A stretch of 64,000 nt of DNA from Methanomassiliicoccales archaeon (GCA_026394395.1 JAPKYK010000003.1:12547-76546); one strand, 5' to 3'; counted from the first letter of the stretch, positions 10,808 through 20,448 are shown. Notes: generated from the letters alone by a model not told the origin. A program made the numbers and translations.

Positions 10808-11197
10808 TCAGCCGTAGCCGTCCATCTCATACGATGGCCGCTTCCCCGCCGGGCAGTTGGCCGAATGGCGTATGAGGTCCTTCACTGTGTTGCGGAGGAC
10901 GGTGGCGTTGACGTAACCTACGGCGCCGCCTATCTTCTGGCCCTTGCAGAAATAGACGAAGGTGGGGGTACCGGTAACCTGGTATCTGGCAGCCAGGACG
11001 TTGTTGTGGTCGGTGTTGATTTTCATGAAGGTGGCGTCCGCACCCACTTCCTTCTGGGCCTGCAGCACTTCCGGTTCCACCTGCTTGCAGACGGAGCATC
11101 CCGGGGACCAGAACTCCAGGACTATGAACCCCCTCTCCCTCCTCAGCAGGTCCAGGAAGAGCTCGTCGCTGACCTCTCTGATGTCACCCATGGGCAT
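10808..11197 (-). CDS. Thioredoxin-fold protein with an atypical CSVC active site
   Basis: VLEFWSPGCSVCKQVEP, with a cis-Pro region GTPTFVYF. The start was moved to the ATG at 11197 because the track ORF (to 11317) overlaps the upstream gene by more than 100 nt. Confidence 0.75.
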   Translation of the reverse strand: MPMGDIREVSDELFLDLLRRERGFIVLEFWSPGCSVCKQVEPEVLQAQKEVGADATFMKINTDHNNVLAARYQVTGTPTFVYFCKGQKIGGAVGYVNATVLRNTVKDLIRHSANCPAGKRPSYEMDGYG

Positions 11198-11205
11198 CCT
11201 CGGAA

Positions 11206-11904
11206 CTATAGGGGGGTGGAGACCCAATAACCTTTTTCCTTGCGCTTGTCGCAGCCATCCTTGCAGTAGCGGGTCTCCAATCTGAAGTTCAGCTCCAGTT
11301 CGTTGGCGGCGGCCCACTGGTAAGCGAACTCCGCCGCGCCGCGCACGTTCAGTTCCACGGCCATGAATAGCATGTCCAGCTGTTCTTCGTCGGGGATATC
11401 CGATTCATCGTTCCCCTTCTTCCAATCGTAGCGCAGGACCTTCTCCACCATGGGGTATAGGTTGCCGCCAGAGCGACGGAACAGGTCCTTGAACACGGCG
11501 AAGTCTATGGCCGAGGGCTCGCGGCCCAGGTTCTTCTTCACCTTGATGAACAGCAGTTCAGATTTTCCGATCTCGTCCAGCACCCTTTCCACGCCTTCCT
11601 GACGGCGTTCCAGGGAATGGAAGCCTTCGATGTGCACGTGCTCCATATGTTCGGTAATGCCGCGCTGGCACTCGTTCATCAGCTCCATGAGCGAGGCCAG
11701 CTCGTCCAGCATCACCAGTAGGAGGGAGTAGCGCATCCTCTTTCTTCCGAGGTAGTCCGGCAGCTCGGATATGGCCCGGTAGGCGTTCAGGTACCCCAGC
11801 AGATGCACGGACATGTCCAGCATCTTCAGGTGCGCGTCGTTGATCTCCAGGTCCAGGTCGTTGGATGAGTTCCCGTTCGAAGCTTCCATTTGCATTCCTT
11901 CCAT
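11206..11904 (-). CDS. Hypothetical protein (232 aa, helical, acidic)
   Basis: Long ORF with coding-like composition, 8 nt upstream of the thioredoxin gene. I recognise no motif. Confidence 0.6.
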   Translation of the reverse strand: MEGMQMEASNGNSSNDLDLEINDAHLKMLDMSVHLLGYLNAYRAISELPDYLGRKRMRYSLLLVMLDELASLMELMNECQRGITEHMEHVHIEGFHSLERRQEGVERVLDEIGKSELLFIKVKKNLGREPSAIDFAVFKDLFRRSGGNLYPMVEKVLRYDWKKGNDESDIPDEEQLDMLFMAVELNVRGAAEFAYQWAAANELELNFRLETRYCKDGCDKRKEKGYWVSTPL

Positions 11905-12247: not shown

Positions 12248-12889
12248 TCAGACCAGGGGAAGCAGGAGAGCCATGTTCAGGCTGGCGAGGACGTAGTCCA
12301 CCGCCCCCCGCATGATGAACTCCACGGCTATGGCCGCCAGCAGCAGCCCGATGATCTTGGAGAAGACCTCCAGAGCGTTGTTGCCAACTTTCTGTGAGAT
12401 GAGCAGGGAGTTCCTCATGATGCCCCAGGTGACCGCCAGGCTGATGATCCCGGCAATGAGCACGGTGAAATAGCCGTACAGGGTGACCAGCAGGATGGCC
12501 GTGGTGATGACTCCCGGTCCGGTCAGCAGCGGGGTGGCGATTATGACCCAGGCCACGCTAGTGTCCTCCTTTTTACTGAGCGTCAAAGAGAATATGATCT
12601 CCATGGCCATGAGCAGCAAAACGATGCCGCCGGCGATACGGAAGGCGCTGGTGGTTATGCTGAAAAAGGCCAACACCTGCGGGCCTATCAGGGCGAAGAT
12701 TACGAACAGCAGGCCGGCAACTAACACGGCCTTGTTCGCGCTGGCCACTTGCTCCTTCTCGCCCTGCCCCTTGGTCAAGGAAATGAACATAGGTACGGTG
12801 GCGAACGGATCGAAGATGAAGAACAGCAACGTGGTTGCGTAGATCAGATCCTCGAATCCGGGCATGGATGAGAGTAAAGGAAAGGTCAA
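12248..12889 (-). CDS. MarC/UPF0056 family integral membrane protein
   Basis: Six hydrophobic segments. The N-terminal motif FFIFDPFATVPMFISLT is typical of the MarC family. Confidence 0.75.
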   Translation of the reverse strand: MTFPLLSSMPGFEDLIYATTLLFFIFDPFATVPMFISLTKGQGEKEQVASANKAVLVAGLLFVIFALIGPQVLAFFSITTSAFRIAGGIVLLLMAMEIIFSLTLSKKEDTSVAWVIIATPLLTGPGVITTAILLVTLYGYFTVLIAGIISLAVTWGIMRNSLLISQKVGNNALEVFSKIIGLLLAAIAVEFIMRGAVDYVLASLNMALLLPLV

Positions 12890-12939: not shown

Positions 12940-13455
12940 TTGAAAACGATGAGAAAGGACCCCATTCTCAATCGTCGGAGCATCCGGCGCTACACCGCGC
13001 AGGATGTGGAGGAGAAGGATGTCATGAAGGTCCTGGAGGCGGCCATGGCCGCGCCCTCGGCCGGAAACGAACGCCCCTGGCATTTCGTGGTCATCCGGGA
13101 CAAGGAGGTCATGCAGGGGATAATGGGAGTGCATCCGTATGCCCAAATGCTCAAGCGATGCCCGGTGACGGTGCTTGTGTGCGGAGACCCCTCGTTGGAG
13201 AAGTATCCCGGTTTCTGGGTGCAGGACTGTTCCGCGGCCACGGAGAACATGCTGATCATGGCCGTGGAACTGGACCTGGGCGCGGTGTGGCTGGGCATAT
13301 ATCCAATCGAGGACCGGGTACACGGCCTGAGGCGATTGCTGGGATTGCCGGAGGACATCATCCCCTTCGCCCTGGTCCCTTTGGGGCATCCGGACGAGGA
13401 GAAGAAGAAGCTGGACCGCTTCGACGGGGAGAGGGTGCACCGGGACGGCTGGTGA
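12940..13455 (+). CDS. Nitroreductase-family flavoprotein
   Basis: ILNRRSIRRYT, APSAGNERPWHFVV, and a C-terminal region LGHPDEE. Confidence 0.8.
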   Translation: MKTMRKDPILNRRSIRRYTAQDVEEKDVMKVLEAAMAAPSAGNERPWHFVVIRDKEVMQGIMGVHPYAQMLKRCPVTVLVCGDPSLEKYPGFWVQDCSAATENMLIMAVELDLGAVWLGIYPIEDRVHGLRRLLGLPEDIIPFALVPLGHPDEEKKKLDRFDGERVHRDGW

Positions 13456-13501
13456 CCATTAATCTACCACTTATATCATACACGATGGGAGTGCTGATAG
13501 G

Positions 13502-13933
13502 ATGAAGCAACTTTGGAGATGTCACGTCTGTAACGATGTTCATCTGGGGAACAAGCCCCCGGATGTGTGCCCCACCTGCGGGGCCAAGAACGCCTTCGTG
13601 CGCTCGGATCTGAACGAAACGTTGGAGATCATAGGCAAGGAGCATCCGGCCATCGAGGCCCGCACGGACGTCGTCGCGGCCTGGAAGCAGTTCTCCGACC
13701 AGAGCCCCACGGTCAAGCTAACGGATAAAACGGACGAGATCGAGATACTGTCCCAGGGTGTCCTGGAGAACCTGCGGAACCGCGGGCAGCGCTATTGCCC
13801 TTGCCGCATAACCACTGGCGACCGGAAGAAGGACCTGAACCTGATATGCCCCTGCAACTTCCTCAAGCAGCAGACCTACAAGGAAACGGGGGAATGCTGG
13901 TGCGGGCTTTTCGTGAAGAGGGATGAGCAATGA
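13502..13933 (+). CDS. Ferredoxin:thioredoxin/disulfide reductase catalytic-subunit-like protein with an N-terminal rubredoxin-like domain
   Basis: The N-terminus has CHVC-x12-CPTC. The C-terminal half has the FTR catalytic Cys pattern CPC-x14-CPC-x13-CWC (YCPCRITTGDRKKDLNLICPCNFLKQQTYKETGECWCGLF). Confidence 0.8.
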   Translation: MKQLWRCHVCNDVHLGNKPPDVCPTCGAKNAFVRSDLNETLEIIGKEHPAIEARTDVVAAWKQFSDQSPTVKLTDKTDEIEILSQGVLENLRNRGQRYCPCRITTGDRKKDLNLICPCNFLKQQTYKETGECWCGLFVKRDEQ

Positions 13934-14217
13934 GCGATAAGAGATTGATCTGGTTCCACGGAAGGGAATGCCCCCATTGCCGCAAGATGGCCCCGATGGT
14001 GGACCAGTTCGAGGCCGAGAACGGAATCAAGCTAACACGCCTGGAGGTCTGGCACAGCGAAGAGAACGCCAAGCTGATGCGTTCGCTGGCCGAAGTGATC
14101 GCCCCAGCCTGCGGAGGTGACCTGGGCGTCCCGACCTTCTATAACGAAGTGACGGGCAAGGCCATCTGCGGCGGCCGCATCGACATGGACAAGCTCAAGG
14201 CCTGGGCCAAGGGGTGA
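13930..14217 (+). CDS. Small thioredoxin/glutaredoxin-like redox protein (CPHC)
   Basis: WFHGRECPHCRKMAP and the cis-Pro motif GVPTFY. The start overlaps the upstream stop by 4 nt. Confidence 0.8.
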   Translation: MSDKRLIWFHGRECPHCRKMAPMVDQFEAENGIKLTRLEVWHSEENAKLMRSLAEVIAPACGGDLGVPTFYNEVTGKAICGGRIDMDKLKAWAKG

Positions 14218-14498
14218 GTCCTTTGGAAAGAAGGGTCAGGGTCACCGGGGGCAAGACCCTGATCTTGAAGGTGGAATGTCAGGACGGTGCGGTGAAGGGA
14301 TTGCGCCTGCAGGGCGATTTCTTCTTCTTCCCCGAGGAAGGCGTGGCCCAGCTGGAATCGTTCCTGCTTACCTCTTCGATCTGGCAGATGGAGGACGTGG
14401 AATCGTTGATCTCCAAGTTCCTGGACGAGCACGGATACCGGGCGGTAGGGTTCGCCCCGGCCGACCTGGCCTATTTGCTGAGAGGATTGAGATGCTGA
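14214..14498 (+). CDS. lplB: Lipoate-protein ligase C-terminal domain protein (LplB type)
   Basis: 94 aa with ...KGLRLQGDFFFFPEEGVAQLESFL..., the GDFF-containing motif of the LplA C-terminal domain. The domain is encoded separately, as in Thermoplasma. The start overlaps the upstream stop by 4 nt. Confidence 0.75.
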   Translation: MSPLERRVRVTGGKTLILKVECQDGAVKGLRLQGDFFFFPEEGVAQLESFLLTSSIWQMEDVESLISKFLDEHGYRAVGFAPADLAYLLRGLRC

Positions 14499-15247
14499 GG
14501 AACAGGTGGAGGGTGCTGCGCTACGAGCCGAAAGCTGCGGCTTACAACATGGCCCTGGATGAGGCCATCGCCGAGGCGGTGAAGTTTCGCGTCGCCGGTC
14601 CGACCATCAGGTTCTACGGCTGGGAACCGGCGGCGGTGAGCATCGGGCGCTTCCAGGACCTGGAGGAGGTCGTGGACCTCGAGCAATGCCGCAAGCTCGG
14701 CGTCCAAGTGGTTCGCCGCAGCACCGGAGGCGGCGCCGTCTTCCACGACCGCGGAAAGGAGATCACCTACAGCGTCGTATGCCTCGAGGAGATGATGCCC
14801 CGGGACATCAACGAGGCCTACCGGGAGATAGGCGGTTGGCTGGTCAACGCCCTGAAGCTCATCGGCATCGAGGGGACCTTCGAGCCGATAAACGACGTGC
14901 TGGTGAACGGGAAGAAGATAAGCGGGAGCGCGCAATCCCGGCGGCAGGGCATCTTCCTGCAGCACGGCACTCTCATGTACGACCTGGACCGCGTGCGGAT
15001 GTTCTCGGTATTGAAGGTCCCCCCGGACAAGCTGAGGCCCCAGGGGATAGAGGGACCGGCCGAGCGGGTCACCAGCGTGAGGGAGCAGAAGAAGGTGCCT
15101 TGGGAGTTCGCCGTGGCTGCCATGGTCAACGCCTTCATCCTGAACAAGCAGTGGTACATCGGAGATCTGACCCAGGACGAACTGGCCCGGGCCGAACAGA
15201 TATCCCGGGAAAGATATTCCAACGAGGACTGGACCAGCGGTGCCTAA
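14492..15247 (+). CDS. lplA: Lipoate-protein ligase A catalytic (N-terminal) domain protein
   Basis: AYNMALDEAI, RFYGWEPAAVSIGRFQ, RRSTGGGAVFHD and the catalytic-Lys region NGKKISGSAQ. I use the ATG at 14492 (ATGCTGA overlap with the lplB stop). The track's 14276 start is an out-of-context extension. Confidence 0.85.
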   Translation: MLRNRWRVLRYEPKAAAYNMALDEAIAEAVKFRVAGPTIRFYGWEPAAVSIGRFQDLEEVVDLEQCRKLGVQVVRRSTGGGAVFHDRGKEITYSVVCLEEMMPRDINEAYREIGGWLVNALKLIGIEGTFEPINDVLVNGKKISGSAQSRRQGIFLQHGTLMYDLDRVRMFSVLKVPPDKLRPQGIEGPAERVTSVREQKKVPWEFAVAAMVNAFILNKQWYIGDLTQDELARAEQISRERYSNEDWTSGA

Positions 15248-16473: not shown

Positions 16474-17439
16474 CTAGAACCTCAACGTGCGCTCTATCCC
16501 TTCGACAATCATCTTCTCGTTCACGTAATAATGGTCCTCGCCCTTGGGCAGGGGGACCGTGATGTCCGGGGCGGTCACCCGTTCCACCGGCGCCTCCAGC
16601 TTCAGTATCGCTCCCTCATAGATGCGGGCGGCGATCTCCGCCCCCGGGCCGAAGGAGCGCGGGGCCTCGTGCACCACCACCGCCCTGCCGGTCCTGCGCA
16701 CCGATTCCAGCACCGTCTCCGAATCCATGGGCGAGATGGTCCTCAGATCGATGACCTCCACCGAGGCCTGCACCTGCGATAGGGCCTTCTGGACCAGGGG
16801 GATCATGGCTCCCCAGCCGACCACGGTCACGTCGTCCCCCTCCTGGACCACCCGGGACCTTCCCAGCGGCACGACGTGCTCACCGTCCAGCACCTCTTCC
16901 TTCAGCATGCGGTACGATCGCGTCGGTTCAAGGAACACCACCGGGTCCGGGTCCCGAATGGCCGAGGTCAGAAGTCCTTTGGCCTCCAGGGGCGTGGATG
17001 GCACCACAACTTTCAGTCCTGGTATCTGGGTGTACAGGGCCTCCGTGCTCTCCGAATGATGCTCTAGAGCTCGGACGCCAGCGCCGTAGGGCATGCGCAG
17101 GACCATGGGCACGGTGATCCGGCCTCGGGTCCGGTTCCGCATACGGGCGGCGTGGTTGATCATCTGGTTGAGGGAAATGTAGGAGAAGCCCATGAACTGC
17201 ATCTCCGCCACCGGCCGCAATCCGTTCATGGCCATGCCGATGGCCACCCCCACGATGCCCGCCTCCGCCAAGGGAGTGTCGATGACCCGTTCCCCGCCGA
17301 ACCTGTCCAAGAGGCCGTCGGTGACGCGGAACACCCCGCCGTCCAGGCCCACGTCCTCGCCTAGCACCACCACCGATGGATCGCGTTCCATCTCCTGCAT
17401 TAGGGCGGCGTTGATGGCCTGCACCATGTTCATCATCAT
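16474..17439 (-). CDS. 2-oxoacid dehydrogenase E1 beta subunit
   Basis: VVLGEDVG..GGVFRVT and RVIDTPLAEAGIVG, a transketolase-like pyrimidine-binding domain. The stop directly abuts the E2 start. Confidence 0.9.
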   Translation of the reverse strand: MMMNMVQAINAALMQEMERDPSVVVLGEDVGLDGGVFRVTDGLLDRFGGERVIDTPLAEAGIVGVAIGMAMNGLRPVAEMQFMGFSYISLNQMINHAARMRNRTRGRITVPMVLRMPYGAGVRALEHHSESTEALYTQIPGLKVVVPSTPLEAKGLLTSAIRDPDPVVFLEPTRSYRMLKEEVLDGEHVVPLGRSRVVQEGDDVTVVGWGAMIPLVQKALSQVQASVEVIDLRTISPMDSETVLESVRRTGRAVVVHEAPRSFGPGAEIAARIYEGAILKLEAPVERVTAPDITVPLPKGEDHYYVNEKMIVEGIERTLRF

Positions 17440-18491
17440 CTACCATCACCCCTCAGCTGCCTTTCGAGGTACGGGGGCATCTCGGCATAGGTGTGCTCGA
17501 AGACCTCGGAACGCGAGGGGACGGGCACGGCCTCCGCCTCGGCGGCGGCCATCTCCACCAATTCGCTCAGCTCTTTCTCGAGGGAACCGTCATCCTTGAT
17601 CAGATTTTGGGAGAGCAGGTAGGCCTTGAACCGCTTCAGCGGGTCCTTCATCTCCCAGGACAGCACCTCCTCCTTGGAGCGATACTTCCTCCAGTCGTCG
17701 GAGGTGGTGTGGTCGCTGAGACGGTAAGTGTACGATTCGATGAGCGTCGGCCCCTGGCCCCGGCGGGCCCGCTCCACCGCCTCCGTCGCCGCGGCGTACA
17801 TGGCCAGGACGTCGTTCCCGTCCACCAGGATGCCTGGGAATCCGTAGGCCACGGCCTTCTGGGCCAGGGTGGGCGAGGCGCTCTGCTTGGCACGCCTGGT
17901 CGATATGGCGAACTGGTTGTTCTGACAGACGAAGACGTTGGGCGTCCGGAAGACCCCGGCGAAGTTGAGCCCCTCGTGGAACTCCCCTTCCGAGGTGGCC
18001 CCGTCGCCGAAGAAGGCCATGGTCACGCTGTCCTCTCGCCTCAGCTTGCTGGCGTAGGCGATGCCCACGGCGTGCGGGATCTGTGATGCCACTGGGACCA
18101 CCGATGGCGTCGCCCTCGCTCCCTCTGGGTAAACGTTGCCCTGCTCGTTGCCCATCCAGTATAGGTAGGCCGTCCTCAGGGGCACGCCCTTCCACAACAG
18201 CCCGCCCATCTCCCGGAAGGCCCAGACCAGCCAATCCTTTTCCTTCAGGGCCATGGCCGGCCCGATCTGGCTGGCCTCCTGGCCTTTGCTCGGGGGATAC
18301 GCGCCCAGGCGCCCCTGCCTCTGCAGCTTGACCGCCTTGTCGTCCGCCAAGCGGGTGAGCACCATGGTGCGGTAGGCTTGGAGCATGATCTCCCTGCTCA
18401 TCTTCGGCTTGAGGGCGGCATCCACGTTCCCCTCCTCGTCCATTATCCGCAGCATCTCCCCCTTTAAAGGATCGAAATCGTCCGTCAGCAT
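17436..18491 (-). CDS. 2-oxoacid dehydrogenase E1 alpha subunit (TPP-binding)
   Basis: TPP motif FFGDGATSEGEFHEGLNFAGV...VCQNN. Overlaps the E1 beta start by 4 nt. Confidence 0.9.
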   Translation of the reverse strand: MLTDDFDPLKGEMLRIMDEEGNVDAALKPKMSREIMLQAYRTMVLTRLADDKAVKLQRQGRLGAYPPSKGQEASQIGPAMALKEKDWLVWAFREMGGLLWKGVPLRTAYLYWMGNEQGNVYPEGARATPSVVPVASQIPHAVGIAYASKLRREDSVTMAFFGDGATSEGEFHEGLNFAGVFRTPNVFVCQNNQFAISTRRAKQSASPTLAQKAVAYGFPGILVDGNDVLAMYAAATEAVERARRGQGPTLIESYTYRLSDHTTSDDWRKYRSKEEVLSWEMKDPLKRFKAYLLSQNLIKDDGSLEKELSELVEMAAAEAEAVPVPSRSEVFEHTYAEMPPYLERQLRGDGR

Positions 18492-19396
18492 CTTCTCGCA
18501 CCTGCCTCATGAATCAGATTGTAAGCGTCATAGGATGACCGCACCAGCGGTCCGGCCCGGACCCCCCTGAAGTCCATCGACAGGGCCGTGCTCCGCAGCT
18601 CGTCGAACTCTGCCGGCAGAACGTACCTTCTCAAGGGCAGGGTCGATCCGGCCGGAGGGAGATATTGACCGAGGGTGAGCAGTTCCACGCCCGCGGTCCG
18701 AAGATCCTTCATCGAAGTGACGACCTCCTCCTTTTCTTCCCCCAGACCCAACATCAGCGAGCTCTTGGTCATGATGCCAGGCTGCATCTCCTTGACCAAG
18801 GACAGCACGCCCAACGAGCGCTCATAGGACGCCCTGGCGTCCCTTATCCACTGCAATGAGCGCACCGTTTCCAGATTGTGCCCTAGCACCTCGGGCGATG
18901 ACATCGCCACCGCTTCCAGGCTGGAACGCCGCCCTTGCAGGTCCGGCACAAGGACCTCGATCGAGGTCCCAGGGTTCATCCAGCGCACTTGGCGTACCGT
19001 TTCCGCGAACATCTCCGCCCCTCCATCCTCCAGGTCGTCACGGGTGACGGAAGTAATGACCACGTGTCGTAAACCCATACATTTGACGGCCTCGGCCACC
19101 CGAGACGGTTCCCCCTCGTCCACGGGACCCGGGTCACCGCAGGGCACGGCGCAGAACCGGCAGTCCCTGGTGCACACGTCGCCCAGCAACATGAACGTGG
19201 CATGACCTTGCCCCCAGCAATCGCCTAGGTTAGGGCAGCGCGAGGAATCGCACACCGTGCGCAATCCTGAGGCGCTAAGGGAACTTCTCATGCCCTGGGA
19301 GCGGGCGGGCGACGCCACCCTGGTCCTCAGCCAGGGCGGTTTCTCCACTACGTCCGGAGGGGCCATGTACTGAGCATATGTCTGCCCATGGTTCAT
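18485..19396 (-). CDS. lipA: Lipoyl synthase
   Basis: Auxiliary cluster CDSSRCPNLGDCW (Cx4Cx5C) and radical-SAM cluster CTRDCRFC (Cx3Cx2C). Overlaps the E1 alpha start by 7 nt (ATGCTGA). Confidence 0.9.
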   Translation of the reverse strand: MNHGQTYAQYMAPPDVVEKPPWLRTRVASPARSQGMRSSLSASGLRTVCDSSRCPNLGDCWGQGHATFMLLGDVCTRDCRFCAVPCGDPGPVDEGEPSRVAEAVKCMGLRHVVITSVTRDDLEDGGAEMFAETVRQVRWMNPGTSIEVLVPDLQGRRSSLEAVAMSSPEVLGHNLETVRSLQWIRDARASYERSLGVLSLVKEMQPGIMTKSSLMLGLGEEKEEVVTSMKDLRTAGVELLTLGQYLPPAGSTLPLRRYVLPAEFDELRSTALSMDFRGVRAGPLVRSSYDAYNLIHEAGARRC

Positions 19397-20448
19397 ATGC
19401 CTTTCTTACCGAACCTACGAACGCAGCGCATGAGCGCGTCCACATGGTCCAAAGGCATTCCCCGGTGCAATGAGCAGGAGCACATGAAGACGTATCCGTC
19501 CCAAGGTTCGAACGTCCTAAGAAAACCTTCCGTCTCGTTAACGATCCTCTGTTCCGGACCCAGCAATAGAGTGGAGAAGGCGTCTATGCCCCCCATGAGG
19601 CACACCTTCCCGGAGAAGGCCTTCTTGAGCAGCTCCGCATCGTTGCCTTCGGCAAATTGGAACCCTTCGATGTCGGTGGCCAGGATGCCGTCCATCAGGG
19701 GCAGGTTGGGGCGCGAGCTCATATCCCCGTGCGGATGGAAGACGGTCGGTAGCCCGAGCTCATGGGCGGCCGATCTCAACCGGGCCAGGTTGGGCAGCGT
19801 GAGCTCACGGAAAGCCTCTTGGCCGAATATGTCCGGGTTGTCCGAGGCGGCGGCGATGAAGGCGCAGTCCAGATCGGCCCTTCCTGCCACAGCCCTCAGG
19901 TACTCCTCCCCCAGTTCCGTGGCGTACCGGACATAGGAGGCGGCAAGATCTGGCTGGAAATGCATGTCCAGGGCCAGGTTCTCCATGCCCCGTAGCAGCG
20001 CCGCCTTGGTGATCGGCCCTTCAAGGTTGCAGATGATGGCGGTATCCGATCTCATTTCCCGGGAAACTTGTTGATAGCAATCCAGTATATGGGGGAAGGG
20101 TGCGGTCCGTTGGAAATCCAATGGTTCGAAGATGGGGTCAACAGCATCTTGAAATGGGTGCCTGACCACGCTGGGGATTCCCCATTCTGGATACTTGACC
20201 AGTCCACCTAGGGCTTCGACCTCCAAGCCCACGAAATGTATGCAACCCACCACCGCATCCTGACCCAGGCGACGATGTAGGGCTATTATGGAACGGTATG
20301 CCTTGGTAGCATCATAAGCTCCGGCGCACACTTCCGGAGTGCTATAGTCCGATTCATCCAGGCCAAGGGTAAGGTCCCTAAGAAAGACCGGAGGGGCGTC
20401 TGGTACGCCCATCTCCAGTGCGCGAAGGAACCTCTCCCTGCCTTTCAT
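19393..20448 (-). CDS. Uroporphyrinogen-decarboxylase (URO-D) family protein, MtaA/MtbA-like
   Basis: 351 aa with a URO-D-like layout. Putative Zn-ligand regions are FHPHGD and FMCSCSL. The stop overlaps the lipA start (ATGA). Confidence 0.65.
   Translation of the reverse strand: MKGRERFLRALEMGVPDAPPVFLRDLTLGLDESDYSTPEVCAGAYDATKAYRSIIALHRRLGQDAVVGCIHFVGLEVEALGGLVKYPEWGIPSVVRHPFQDAVDPIFEPLDFQRTAPFPHILDCYQQVSREMRSDTAIICNLEGPITKAALLRGMENLALDMHFQPDLAASYVRYATELGEEYLRAVAGRADLDCAFIAAASDNPDIFGQEAFRELTLPNLARLRSAAHELGLPTVFHPHGDMSSRPNLPLMDGILATDIEGFQFAEGNDAELLKKAFSGKVCLMGGIDAFSTLLLGPEQRIVNETEGFLRTFEPWDGYVFMCSCSLHRGMPLDHVDALMRCVRRFGKKGI

Follow-up and report, generated by a model that had tools for sequence, protein, structure and literature searches.

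A rubredoxin-fused FTR-like reductase and a CxHC thioredoxin-like protein as a possible replacement of E3 in 2-oxoacid dehydrogenase clusters of anaerobic archaea and bacteria

How could a 2-oxoacid dehydrogenase complex re-oxidise its lipoyl arm when the gene for the enzyme that normally does so is missing? The textbook 2-oxoacid dehydrogenase complex belongs to aerobic metabolism and consists of E1, E2 and E3, and the presence of E1, E2 and lipoate genes without E3 (dihydrolipoamide dehydrogenase, Lpd) in strict anaerobes, including methanogens, is so far unexplained. The question is raised by a 64-kb stretch of DNA from the metagenome-assembled genome of a Methanomassiliicoccales archaeon, which was analyzed at its full length and is called the window here. 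It contains four plus-strand genes that encode a rubredoxin-fused protein similar to the catalytic subunit of ferredoxin:thioredoxin reductase (FTR), called Rd-FTR here, a thioredoxin-like (Trx-like) protein with a CPHC active site, and the two subunits of a split lipoate-protein ligase, LplB and LplA. A convergent operon encodes lipoyl synthase (LipA), E1alpha, E1beta and E2. With a probability of about 0.5, Rd-FTR and the Trx-like protein (the pair) form an obligate dithiol/disulfide relay on the lipoyl arm of E1alpha/E1beta/E2, and thus stand in for E3.

Gene organization and conservation of the neighbourhood

The features of the locus are as follows.

13457-13479, plus strand: A/T-rich TATA-like elements, ATTAAT and TTATATCA, 24-45 nt 5' of the Rd-FTR start codon
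13502-13933, plus strand: gene 1, Rd-FTR; ATG start, 143 aa
13930-14217, plus strand: gene 2, CPHC Trx-like protein; ATG start, 95 aa
14214-14498, plus strand: gene 3, LplB-like small subunit of the split lipoate-protein ligase; GTG start, 94 aa
14492-15247, plus strand: gene 4, LplA, catalytic (large) subunit of the lipoate-protein ligase; ATG start, 251 aa
15244-16473, minus strand: E2, dihydrolipoyl acyltransferase; Pfam Biotin_lipoyl, E3_binding and 2-oxoacid_dh
16474-17439, minus strand: E1beta; NCBIfam PDH E1 beta, 300 bits
17436-18491, minus strand: E1alpha, thiamine diphosphate-dependent; NCBIfam TIGR03181 (PDH E1 alpha), 447 bits (cut-off 411)
18485-19396, minus strand: LipA; NCBIfam lipoyl synthase, 372 bits

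An earlier note on this DNA had described the four plus-strand genes as one unit with overlaps of 4, 4 and 7 nt, and the coordinates as well as the junction sequences were exactly confirmed (ATGA at 13930-13933, GTGA at 14214-14217, ATGCTGA at 14492-14498). Profile matches also upheld the four gene identities that it had given, with the LplB and Thioredoxin matches staying below their cut-offs. The LplB-like protein matched NCBIfam LplB with an E-value of 1.6e-8 and 34.6 bits, below the cut-off of 65, and its size and position are conserved. LplA matched Pfam LplA-B_cat with 165 bits and NCBIfam LplA_large with 207 bits (E 2e-61). E2 has a lipoyl domain, a peripheral-subunit-binding domain (PSBD) and a catalytic domain, and the window thus encodes a 2-oxoacid dehydrogenase with E1alpha, E1beta and a three-domain E2.

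As the earlier note had stated, E3 is missing. A tblastn search with E. coli Lpd (E 1e-2) revealed no homologue in the 64-kb window or in any of the 80 species-level loci described below, and a Pfam scan of the ten window open reading frames (ORFs) of 377-603 aa revealed no pyridine-nucleotide-disulfide oxidoreductase. Profile scans likewise detected no FAD/NAD pyridine-nucleotide-disulfide oxidoreductase domain in Rd-FTR or in the Trx-like protein. In a study of 243 Methanomassiliicoccales genomes lpdA was absent from the order, while it is common in other orders (PMC10804542). E1, E2, LipA and the ligase are present but lpdA is absent, and therefore the Methanomassiliicoccales are without a known enzyme for the re-oxidation of dihydrolipoyl-E2.

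The conservation of the neighbourhood was analyzed with an alignment of Rd-FTR against one genome per species of GTDB, and the best 80 of 298 relatives were kept as loci. Neighbourhood counts were restricted to loci with at least 3 kb downstream, and the LipA count to 43 longer Methanomassiliicoccales-type loci. The Trx-like gene directly follows Rd-FTR in 79 of the 80 loci, and the sole exception ends at a contig edge. The spacing between the two genes is -8 to +7 nt in 72 of the 79. Short gene overlaps are common in archaeal operons; the spacing of this junction is conserved, however, and thus the overlap is more than chance.

The earlier note had asked whether the four-gene arrangement is unique to this genome, which is not the case. 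Among the 56 Methanomassiliicoccales-type loci, 47 had enough flank, and LplA lies co-directionally behind the pair in 44 of them. An LplB-like gene was detected upstream of LplA in 36 of the 47, E2 is convergent in 39 (plus one frameshifted), and LipA belongs to the convergent operon in 38/43. The complete arrangement is also carried by the cultured type strain M. luminyensis B10. In all four Bathyarchaeia loci the pair directly faces E2-E1beta-E1alpha, and LplA is found at the far end of the dehydrogenase operon. A third gene order was seen in Aminicenantes-type bacteria, where E1alpha-E1beta-E2 is located directly downstream of the pair, on the same strand and without a ligase, in 3 of 15 loci (L060, L069, L080). 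Taken together, the Rd-FTR/Trx-like pair is the invariant unit, and E1alpha-E1beta-E2 is its recurring neighbour in three phyla and three gene orders.

The lipoate ligase, which the earlier note had placed at the centre, was therefore rejected as the primary partner of the pair in general. The link is real in Methanomassiliicoccales, the only group with LplB/LplA behind the pair, and is not found in Bathyarchaeia, with the ligase at the far end, or in bacteria, which have none at this site. The ligase link is lineage-specific and E1/E2 recurs, and thus the conserved partner is the E3-less dehydrogenase.

The reverse approach, a metagenome scan with an E2 alignment, yielded 80 loci, 34 of which have flanks on both sides of E1alpha-E1beta-E2. 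Lpd lies right behind E2 and a Trx-like gene is absent in 14 of the 34, a Trx-like gene is located upstream of E1alpha and Lpd is absent in 13, and neither is nearby in 7. A search of all ORFs with hidden Markov models detected no hidden Trx-like or FTR genes in the loci with neither gene or in the E3-linked loci. The mutual exclusivity of Lpd and the Trx-like gene in the 34 loci has a Fisher p of 1.6e-4, uncorrected for phylogeny. Rd-FTR is also present in 7 of the 13 Trx-like-linked loci. The co-directional order pair-E1alpha-E1beta-E2 of the Aminicenantes-type bacteria was also seen in the metagenome loci L083, L085, L086, L088, L089, L092 and L140. The other six of the 13, which come from other lineages, have the Trx-like gene alone, directly 5' of E1alpha, with the motifs EC[HVAED][FH]C, and thus the Trx-like protein is the component most tightly tied to the complex. 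In three further Methanomassiliicoccales-type contigs that were looked up starting from E2, Rd-FTR, Trx-like, LplB and LplA genes were next to E2 in all three cases. In a neighbour-joining tree of E2 the Lpd-linked sequences are basal, and the Trx-linked sequences form essentially one derived clade in which archaea and bacteria are mixed. It seems that E2 and the rest of the module travelled together between archaea and bacteria.

Several loci have further neighbours. E3-less E1-E2 operons of other anaerobes were found beside genes for ADP-forming acyl-CoA synthetases (L093 5244-7284, L109 3298-4662, L118 2821-8623), and L118 in addition encodes an amino-acid dehydrogenase, a setting that points to the fermentation of 2-oxoacids or amino acids with substrate-level phosphorylation. 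In M. luminyensis (L162-L164 14020-16426) genes for fumarase and SdhA/SdhB-like proteins precede the LipA-E1-E2 operon on the same strand, and fumarase also adjoins E2 in the bacterial locus L060, which may be a link to a partial tricarboxylic acid branch or a fumarate sink. The bacterial pair is located between secA-guaB and panDCB. The conserved genes of 868 aa and 487 aa upstream of it had been considered as lipoyl enzymes, and this was rejected because they encode SecA and IMP dehydrogenase; the genes downstream are panD, panC and panB. In an Iainarchaeum (DPANN) metagenome-assembled genome (L073 3903-4487) a rubrerythrin gene lies directly 3' of the pair, and there is no adjacent dehydrogenase. 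Short E2 and LipA remnants are present at the expected site of the dehydrogenase operon in L006 (9780-10055) and L037 (9866-10312), which indicates that the cluster was lost recently in some lineages while the pair (and LplA) stayed intact. In L013 the next gene after the Trx-like gene is a URO-D/MtaA-CmuA-like one, which would fit a clean deletion of the block from LplB to LipA (about 5.2 kb in the window).

The two operons of the window are also closely packed against each other. The minus-strand LipA-E1alpha-E1beta-E2 operon is as tightly packed as the four-gene unit, and the stop codons of LplA (TAA, plus strand) and E2 (TAG, minus strand) interlock in CTAA at 15244-15247, so that there is no intergenic space between the convergent units. 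Without an intergenic terminator between LplA and E2, the 3' ends of the transcripts of both operons must overlap in antisense. The TATA-like stretch at 13457-13479 is probably the archaeal promoter of the four-gene unit; ATTTTAT or TATATA boxes are found at the aligned position 5' of Rd-FTR in relatives, and thus the unit probably begins at gene 1. The promoter/terminator scan of the locus was built on a consensus of the bacterial type, and its output is uninformative for archaeal DNA. A nitroreductase-family gene (12940-13455, plus strand) lies 46 nt 5' of Rd-FTR. It is kept at this position in the closest relatives only, i.e., in 12 of the 14 loci L001-L014 (no match in L007 and L011), and is missing there in more distant relatives. 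A second, more canonical thioredoxin (10808-11317, minus strand; Pfam 64.8 bits) has an N-terminal extension and a WSPGCSVC site, and it is syntenic in many relatives, along with a MarC/NAAT transporter gene (12248-12889). On the other side, a URO-D/MtaA-CmuA-like methyltransferase gene (19393-20448, minus strand) shares 4 nt with the start of LipA, and genes of the ABC-transporter type are found upstream of it.

The two redox proteins and their candidate substrate

The protein encoded by gene 1 is 100% identical to the NCBI protein NT131_03785, and its Pfam matches are RUBY_RBDX (36.5 bits) and FeThRed_B (PF02943, 58.5 bits, cut-off 22). An N-terminal rubredoxin-like (Rd) domain with C7, C10, C23 and C26 in a CxxC...CxxC arrangement is followed by an FTR-catalytic-subunit-like domain with the motifs C99-P-C101, C116-P-C118 and C132-W-C134. 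The six Cys of the FTR domain are invariant in an alignment of 21 Rd-FTR sequences, and the four Cys of the Rd domain are kept in at least 90% of these; one member is without the Rd domain. The earlier note had left it to an alignment to decide whether the FTR-like Cys are the ligands of cluster and disulfide. The six residues indeed align with the cluster/disulfide Cys of the M. acetivorans ferredoxin:disulfide reductase (FDR) structure 4TPU, of 7PWE and of Synechocystis FTR (2PVD/1DJ7), with the Synechocystis match being marginal. When the FTR domain alone was compared with solved structures, 7PWE was first (E 1.2e-12) and 4TPU second (E 2e-10); with the family profile 4TPU was best. The last motif is CWC instead of the plant-type CHC (it is CYC in 4TPU and 7PWE), and thus Rd-FTR is FDR-like and not a plant-type FTR. 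It is predicted to be a [4Fe-4S] disulfide reductase of the FTR/FDR type. In total 461 homologues were found, mostly in Methanomassiliicoccales. The AlphaFold2 model was moderate, with a predicted local distance difference test (pLDDT) value of 73 that was low over the Cys-rich segment, and was left out of the fold search. Some Methanomassiliicoccales relatives have a reductase of 190 aa with two tandem rubredoxin-like domains before the FTR domain (L045 2763-3332, L051 8001-8561, L056 290-850; proteins P0021, P0028, P0049 and P0064).

Gene 2 does not encode a canonical thioredoxin by profile score and active site. It reached 19.7 bits with Pfam Thioredoxin (PF00085), under the cut-off of 23.5, and 16 bits with TIGR01068 (cut-off 96.8), and the active site is ECPHC, not WCGPC. 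The AlphaFold2 model has a Trx fold with a mean pLDDT of 86.8, in which C14 and C17 are placed at the start of helix 15-31, behind strand 6-10, and strand 69-72 is preceded by V67-P68. A Foldseek search with this model matched thioredoxins and glutaredoxins, and the best matches were thioredoxins with template modelling (TM) scores of 0.65-0.73. The protein has the active site E-C14-P-H-C17, an EVWH motif, the cis-Pro V67-P68, and two further invariant Cys, C61 and C80. The family is small (186 clusters at E<=1e-10 in a set of 1.84 billion representatives) and strongly conserved in ECPHC, EVWH, ACGG-x-LGVP and the fourth invariant Cys. About one third of the best 149 members have N-terminal extensions, and 29 of the extended ones have a hydrophobic, signal-like segment. 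The CxHC members P0175, P0179, P0184, P0200, P0202 and P0203 have signal peptides of the lipoprotein type, transmembrane segments or a large domain at the N-terminus, and such members resemble exported archaeal DsbA-like thiol oxidases. The active-site dipeptide of DsbA is Pro-His. This dipeptide and the family members with signal or membrane segments are hints that the Trx fold could be an oxidising one.

Which disulfide or dithiol could the pair act on? In the alignments not a single Cys is conserved in E2, and neither E1alpha nor E1beta nor E2 retains a Cys pair throughout the Trx-linked group. E1alpha has a single, partly conserved Cys, which is common to the E3-linked relatives. LplA has one invariant Cys, LplB has no conserved Cys, and in LipA the conserved Cys are the six cluster-binding ligands alone. 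As E1, E2, LplA and LplB are all without a conserved Cys pair, no conserved dithiol/disulfide other than the lipoyl dithiolane is left in the neighbourhood. This argues against regulation of the classical Trx type, and it also makes the ligase and LipA unlikely as protein substrates; a regulatory disulfide in the dehydrogenase or the ligase was rejected on these grounds.

The proposed relay and its alternatives

In the proposed relay, E1 and E2 would oxidise the 2-oxoacid to acyl-CoA, and dihydrolipoyl-E2 would be left. It would be re-oxidised by the disulfide form of the Trx-like protein via thiol-disulfide exchange, and the reduced Trx-like protein would in turn be re-oxidised at the active-site disulfide of the FTR-like domain. 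The [4Fe-4S] cluster would then split the electron pair into single electrons, which might be passed on through the fused rubredoxin centre, with ferredoxin or another one-electron carrier as the acceptor. The genes for LplB/LplA and LipA would be co-located because their products build the same cofactor, and not because they are redox substrates. The relay would work in place of E3 without being an E3. Of the roles that the earlier note had considered, the recycling of dihydrolipoyl-E2 by a thioredoxin is thus the best supported one, by the exclusivity of E3 and the Trx-like gene and by the lack of a conserved protein disulfide, with the direction being deduced. A wider claim is made more tentatively, at somewhat less than even odds, namely that the cluster encodes a flavin-free, NAD-independent 2-oxoacid dehydrogenase in which E3 is replaced by a CxHC Trx-fold protein, mostly together with an Rd-FTR that runs in the dithiol-oxidising direction, and that this module appears to have spread among archaea and bacteria with its E2.

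Several points weigh against the relay. The pair is without an adjacent dehydrogenase in 12 of the 15 Aminicenantes-type loci and in two close relatives (L008, L013), and two others retain only the ligase (L006, L012); the pair may thus have other or broader substrates. The seven E1-E2 loci with neither E3 nor a Trx-like gene show that adjacency is not obligatory. The genome-wide absence of E3 is taken from the literature, and this statement covers the Methanomassiliicoccales alone. As the Trx-linked E2 form one clade, the exclusivity statistic reflects few independent events; the persistence of the proximity through several gene orders is the stronger argument. For every member of the family the terminal acceptor and the direction in which the electrons would run are deduced from the sequence, and so is the choice of lipoyl-E2 as the substrate. 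Characterised FTR and FDR enzymes run from ferredoxin to the disulfide, and electrons on their way to ferredoxin, at about -400 mV, would have to run uphill from dihydrolipoamide, at about -290 mV. This thermodynamic caveat, already raised in the earlier note, stands; a high-potential Rd centre and an oxidising, DsbA-type CPHC site would ease the uphill step.

Four other explanations have to be weighed against the proposed relay. Electrons could run in the opposite direction, from ferredoxin via Rd-FTR to the Trx-like protein, and keep lipoate or lipoyl-E2 in the dithiol form, either for the handling of the cofactor after ligation or LipA action, or because dihydrolipoyl-E2 acts as a hub for thiol reduction or antioxidant defence, comparable to the Lpd-DlaT-AhpD-AhpC system of Mycobacterium. 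Such a flow is thermodynamically downhill and has the direction of the characterised FDR and FTR enzymes, and both the overlap of the pair with LplB/LplA in Methanomassiliicoccales and the rubrerythrin gene beside the pair in the Iainarchaeum locus would fit. However, the E3-less complex would then be without re-oxidation of the lipoyl arm, although lpdA is absent, and the mutual exclusivity with E3 would be unexplained. The ligase is unlinked to the pair outside one order, and E1 requires the oxidised lipoyl group, so that a reduction of lipoyl-E2 would inhibit forward catalysis. The reductive direction is thus regarded as unlikely. A little less likely still is a role of the pair as a ferredoxin-dependent thioredoxin system that serves these anaerobes for general purposes, with a neighbourhood that is inherited synteny without a specific functional link. 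The loci in which the pair is kept and the dehydrogenase cluster is missing (L008, L013 and the 12 of 15 bacterial ones) are as expected for such a system, and linkage within one E2 clade could be largely inherited. In contrast, the proximity survives at least three gene orders in three phyla, and the Trx-like gene also occurs alone directly 5' of E1alpha. In addition, the Trx-like family is small (186 clusters) with an atypical motif, and a separate thioredoxin of the canonical type is encoded 2.5 kb away (10808-11317).

Two further explanations have far lower probabilities. The earlier note had suggested that the pair supports LipA, by electron supply, repair or reduction. LipA does belong to the convergent operon in 38 of the 43 Methanomassiliicoccales-type loci, and a Trx-like gene lies 42 nt 5' of LipA in L121. 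Yet LipA is missing from the Bathyarchaeia and bacterial loci that have the pair beside E1-E2, and it has no disulfide in addition to its six conserved cluster-binding Cys. Radical-SAM enzymes draw single electrons directly from ferredoxin or flavodoxin, and we know of no thioredoxin requirement of these enzymes. Little is thus left in favour of this role, which is very improbable. Marginally less probable than LipA support is a classical regulation, in which the pair would switch the dehydrogenase or the ligase via a regulatory protein disulfide. This is the textbook role of FTR and thioredoxin in plastids and cyanobacteria, but E2 has no conserved Cys column, E1beta, LplA and LplB have no conserved Cys pair, and the one partly conserved Cys of E1alpha is shared with E3-linked relatives. 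Moreover, regulation would leave the missing E3 unaddressed.

Comparison with known systems and implications

The closest family to Rd-FTR is the Methanosarcina FDR (M. acetivorans MA1659, 4TPU). Both have a six-Cys FTR-type domain and a rubredoxin-like centre that replaces the FTR variable subunit, and the M. barkeri FDR is also reported to work with a dedicated atypical redoxin (NrdH-like) that is encoded beside its client, in this case a class III ribonucleotide reductase. However, the Rd domain is C-terminal in 4TPU and N-terminal in Rd-FTR, and Rd-FTR has Trp between its last two Cys, not Tyr or His. Its partner comes from a separate Trx-like family, which has a CxHC motif and two additional invariant Cys, the proposed client is an E3-less lipoyl dehydrogenase, and electrons may run in reverse. 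The plant and cyanobacterial FTR, with thioredoxins f and m, shares the CPC...CPC...CxC motifs, an FeThRed_B match above threshold and the [4Fe-4S]/disulfide chemistry, which is predicted for Rd-FTR. In contrast to it, Rd-FTR lacks a variable subunit and has Trp in place of the catalytic His. The sequences are marginally similar (E about 0.05-0.1), the partner of Rd-FTR does not have the WCGPC site of thioredoxins, and its role is probably catalytic and not regulatory.

For the oxidation of a dihydrolipoyl protein by a Trx-type partner, the nearest functional precedent is by analogy Eubacterium (Peptoclostridium) acidaminophilum. It has no dihydrolipoamide dehydrogenase gene, and the electrons of its glycine decarboxylase are thought to flow via a CxxU protein to the thioredoxin system (PMC4056300). 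The anaerobic life, the lipoyl protein, the absence of E3 and a small, operon-encoded CxxU/CxxC redox protein are common to both systems. In this case, however, the lipoyl carrier is the H-protein and not E2, the redox protein is the selenoprotein PrpU, and a flavoprotein thioredoxin reductase and glycine reductase act downstream instead of an Fe-S FTR-like enzyme. Thermoplasma acidophilum, of the same class-level lineage, has E1alpha, E1beta, E2 (with lipoyl domain and PSBD) and separate LplB and LplA as well. The 2-oxoacid dehydrogenase operon of Thermoplasma ends with E3, whereas the Methanomassiliicoccales cluster has the Rd-FTR/Trx-like pair instead. In the Lpd-DlaT(SucB)-AhpD-AhpC system of M. 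tuberculosis the E2 lipoyl domain also exchanges electrons with a CxxC redox protein, but the electrons come from NADH via E3, AhpD has no Trx fold, the purpose is peroxide reduction, and an Fe-S reductase is not involved. A genomic tie between Fe-S enzymes of the disulfide-reductase type and lipoate-binding proteins with dedicated ligases is reported from sHdr-LbpA sulfur oxidation with sLpl(AB) (PMC6067878, PMC10332631); it involves other families (Hdr-like, LbpA) and another pathway, without an E1/E2 dehydrogenase. In line with the earlier note, which knew of no such operonic link, the full-text literature searched, which leaves most subscription journals outside, contained no earlier description of FTR-like genes in connection with lipoyl genes or with those of 2-oxoacid dehydrogenases.

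The proposal can be tested directly, because the cultured M. luminyensis B10 has the full cluster. If it is true, a conserved Fe-S/thiol relay at the position of E3 would be a new way of closing the lipoyl cycle, FTR-like enzymes would gain a role in the oxidising direction, and lipoyl chemistry would be tied to the ferredoxin or rubredoxin pools of anaerobes. The hosts of such an E3-free system would be the methanogen relatives, the Bathyarchaeia and the Aminicenantes, all of them strict anaerobes, and the treatment of these genes in metabolic models of Methanomassiliicoccales, Bathyarchaeia and Aminicenantes would change.

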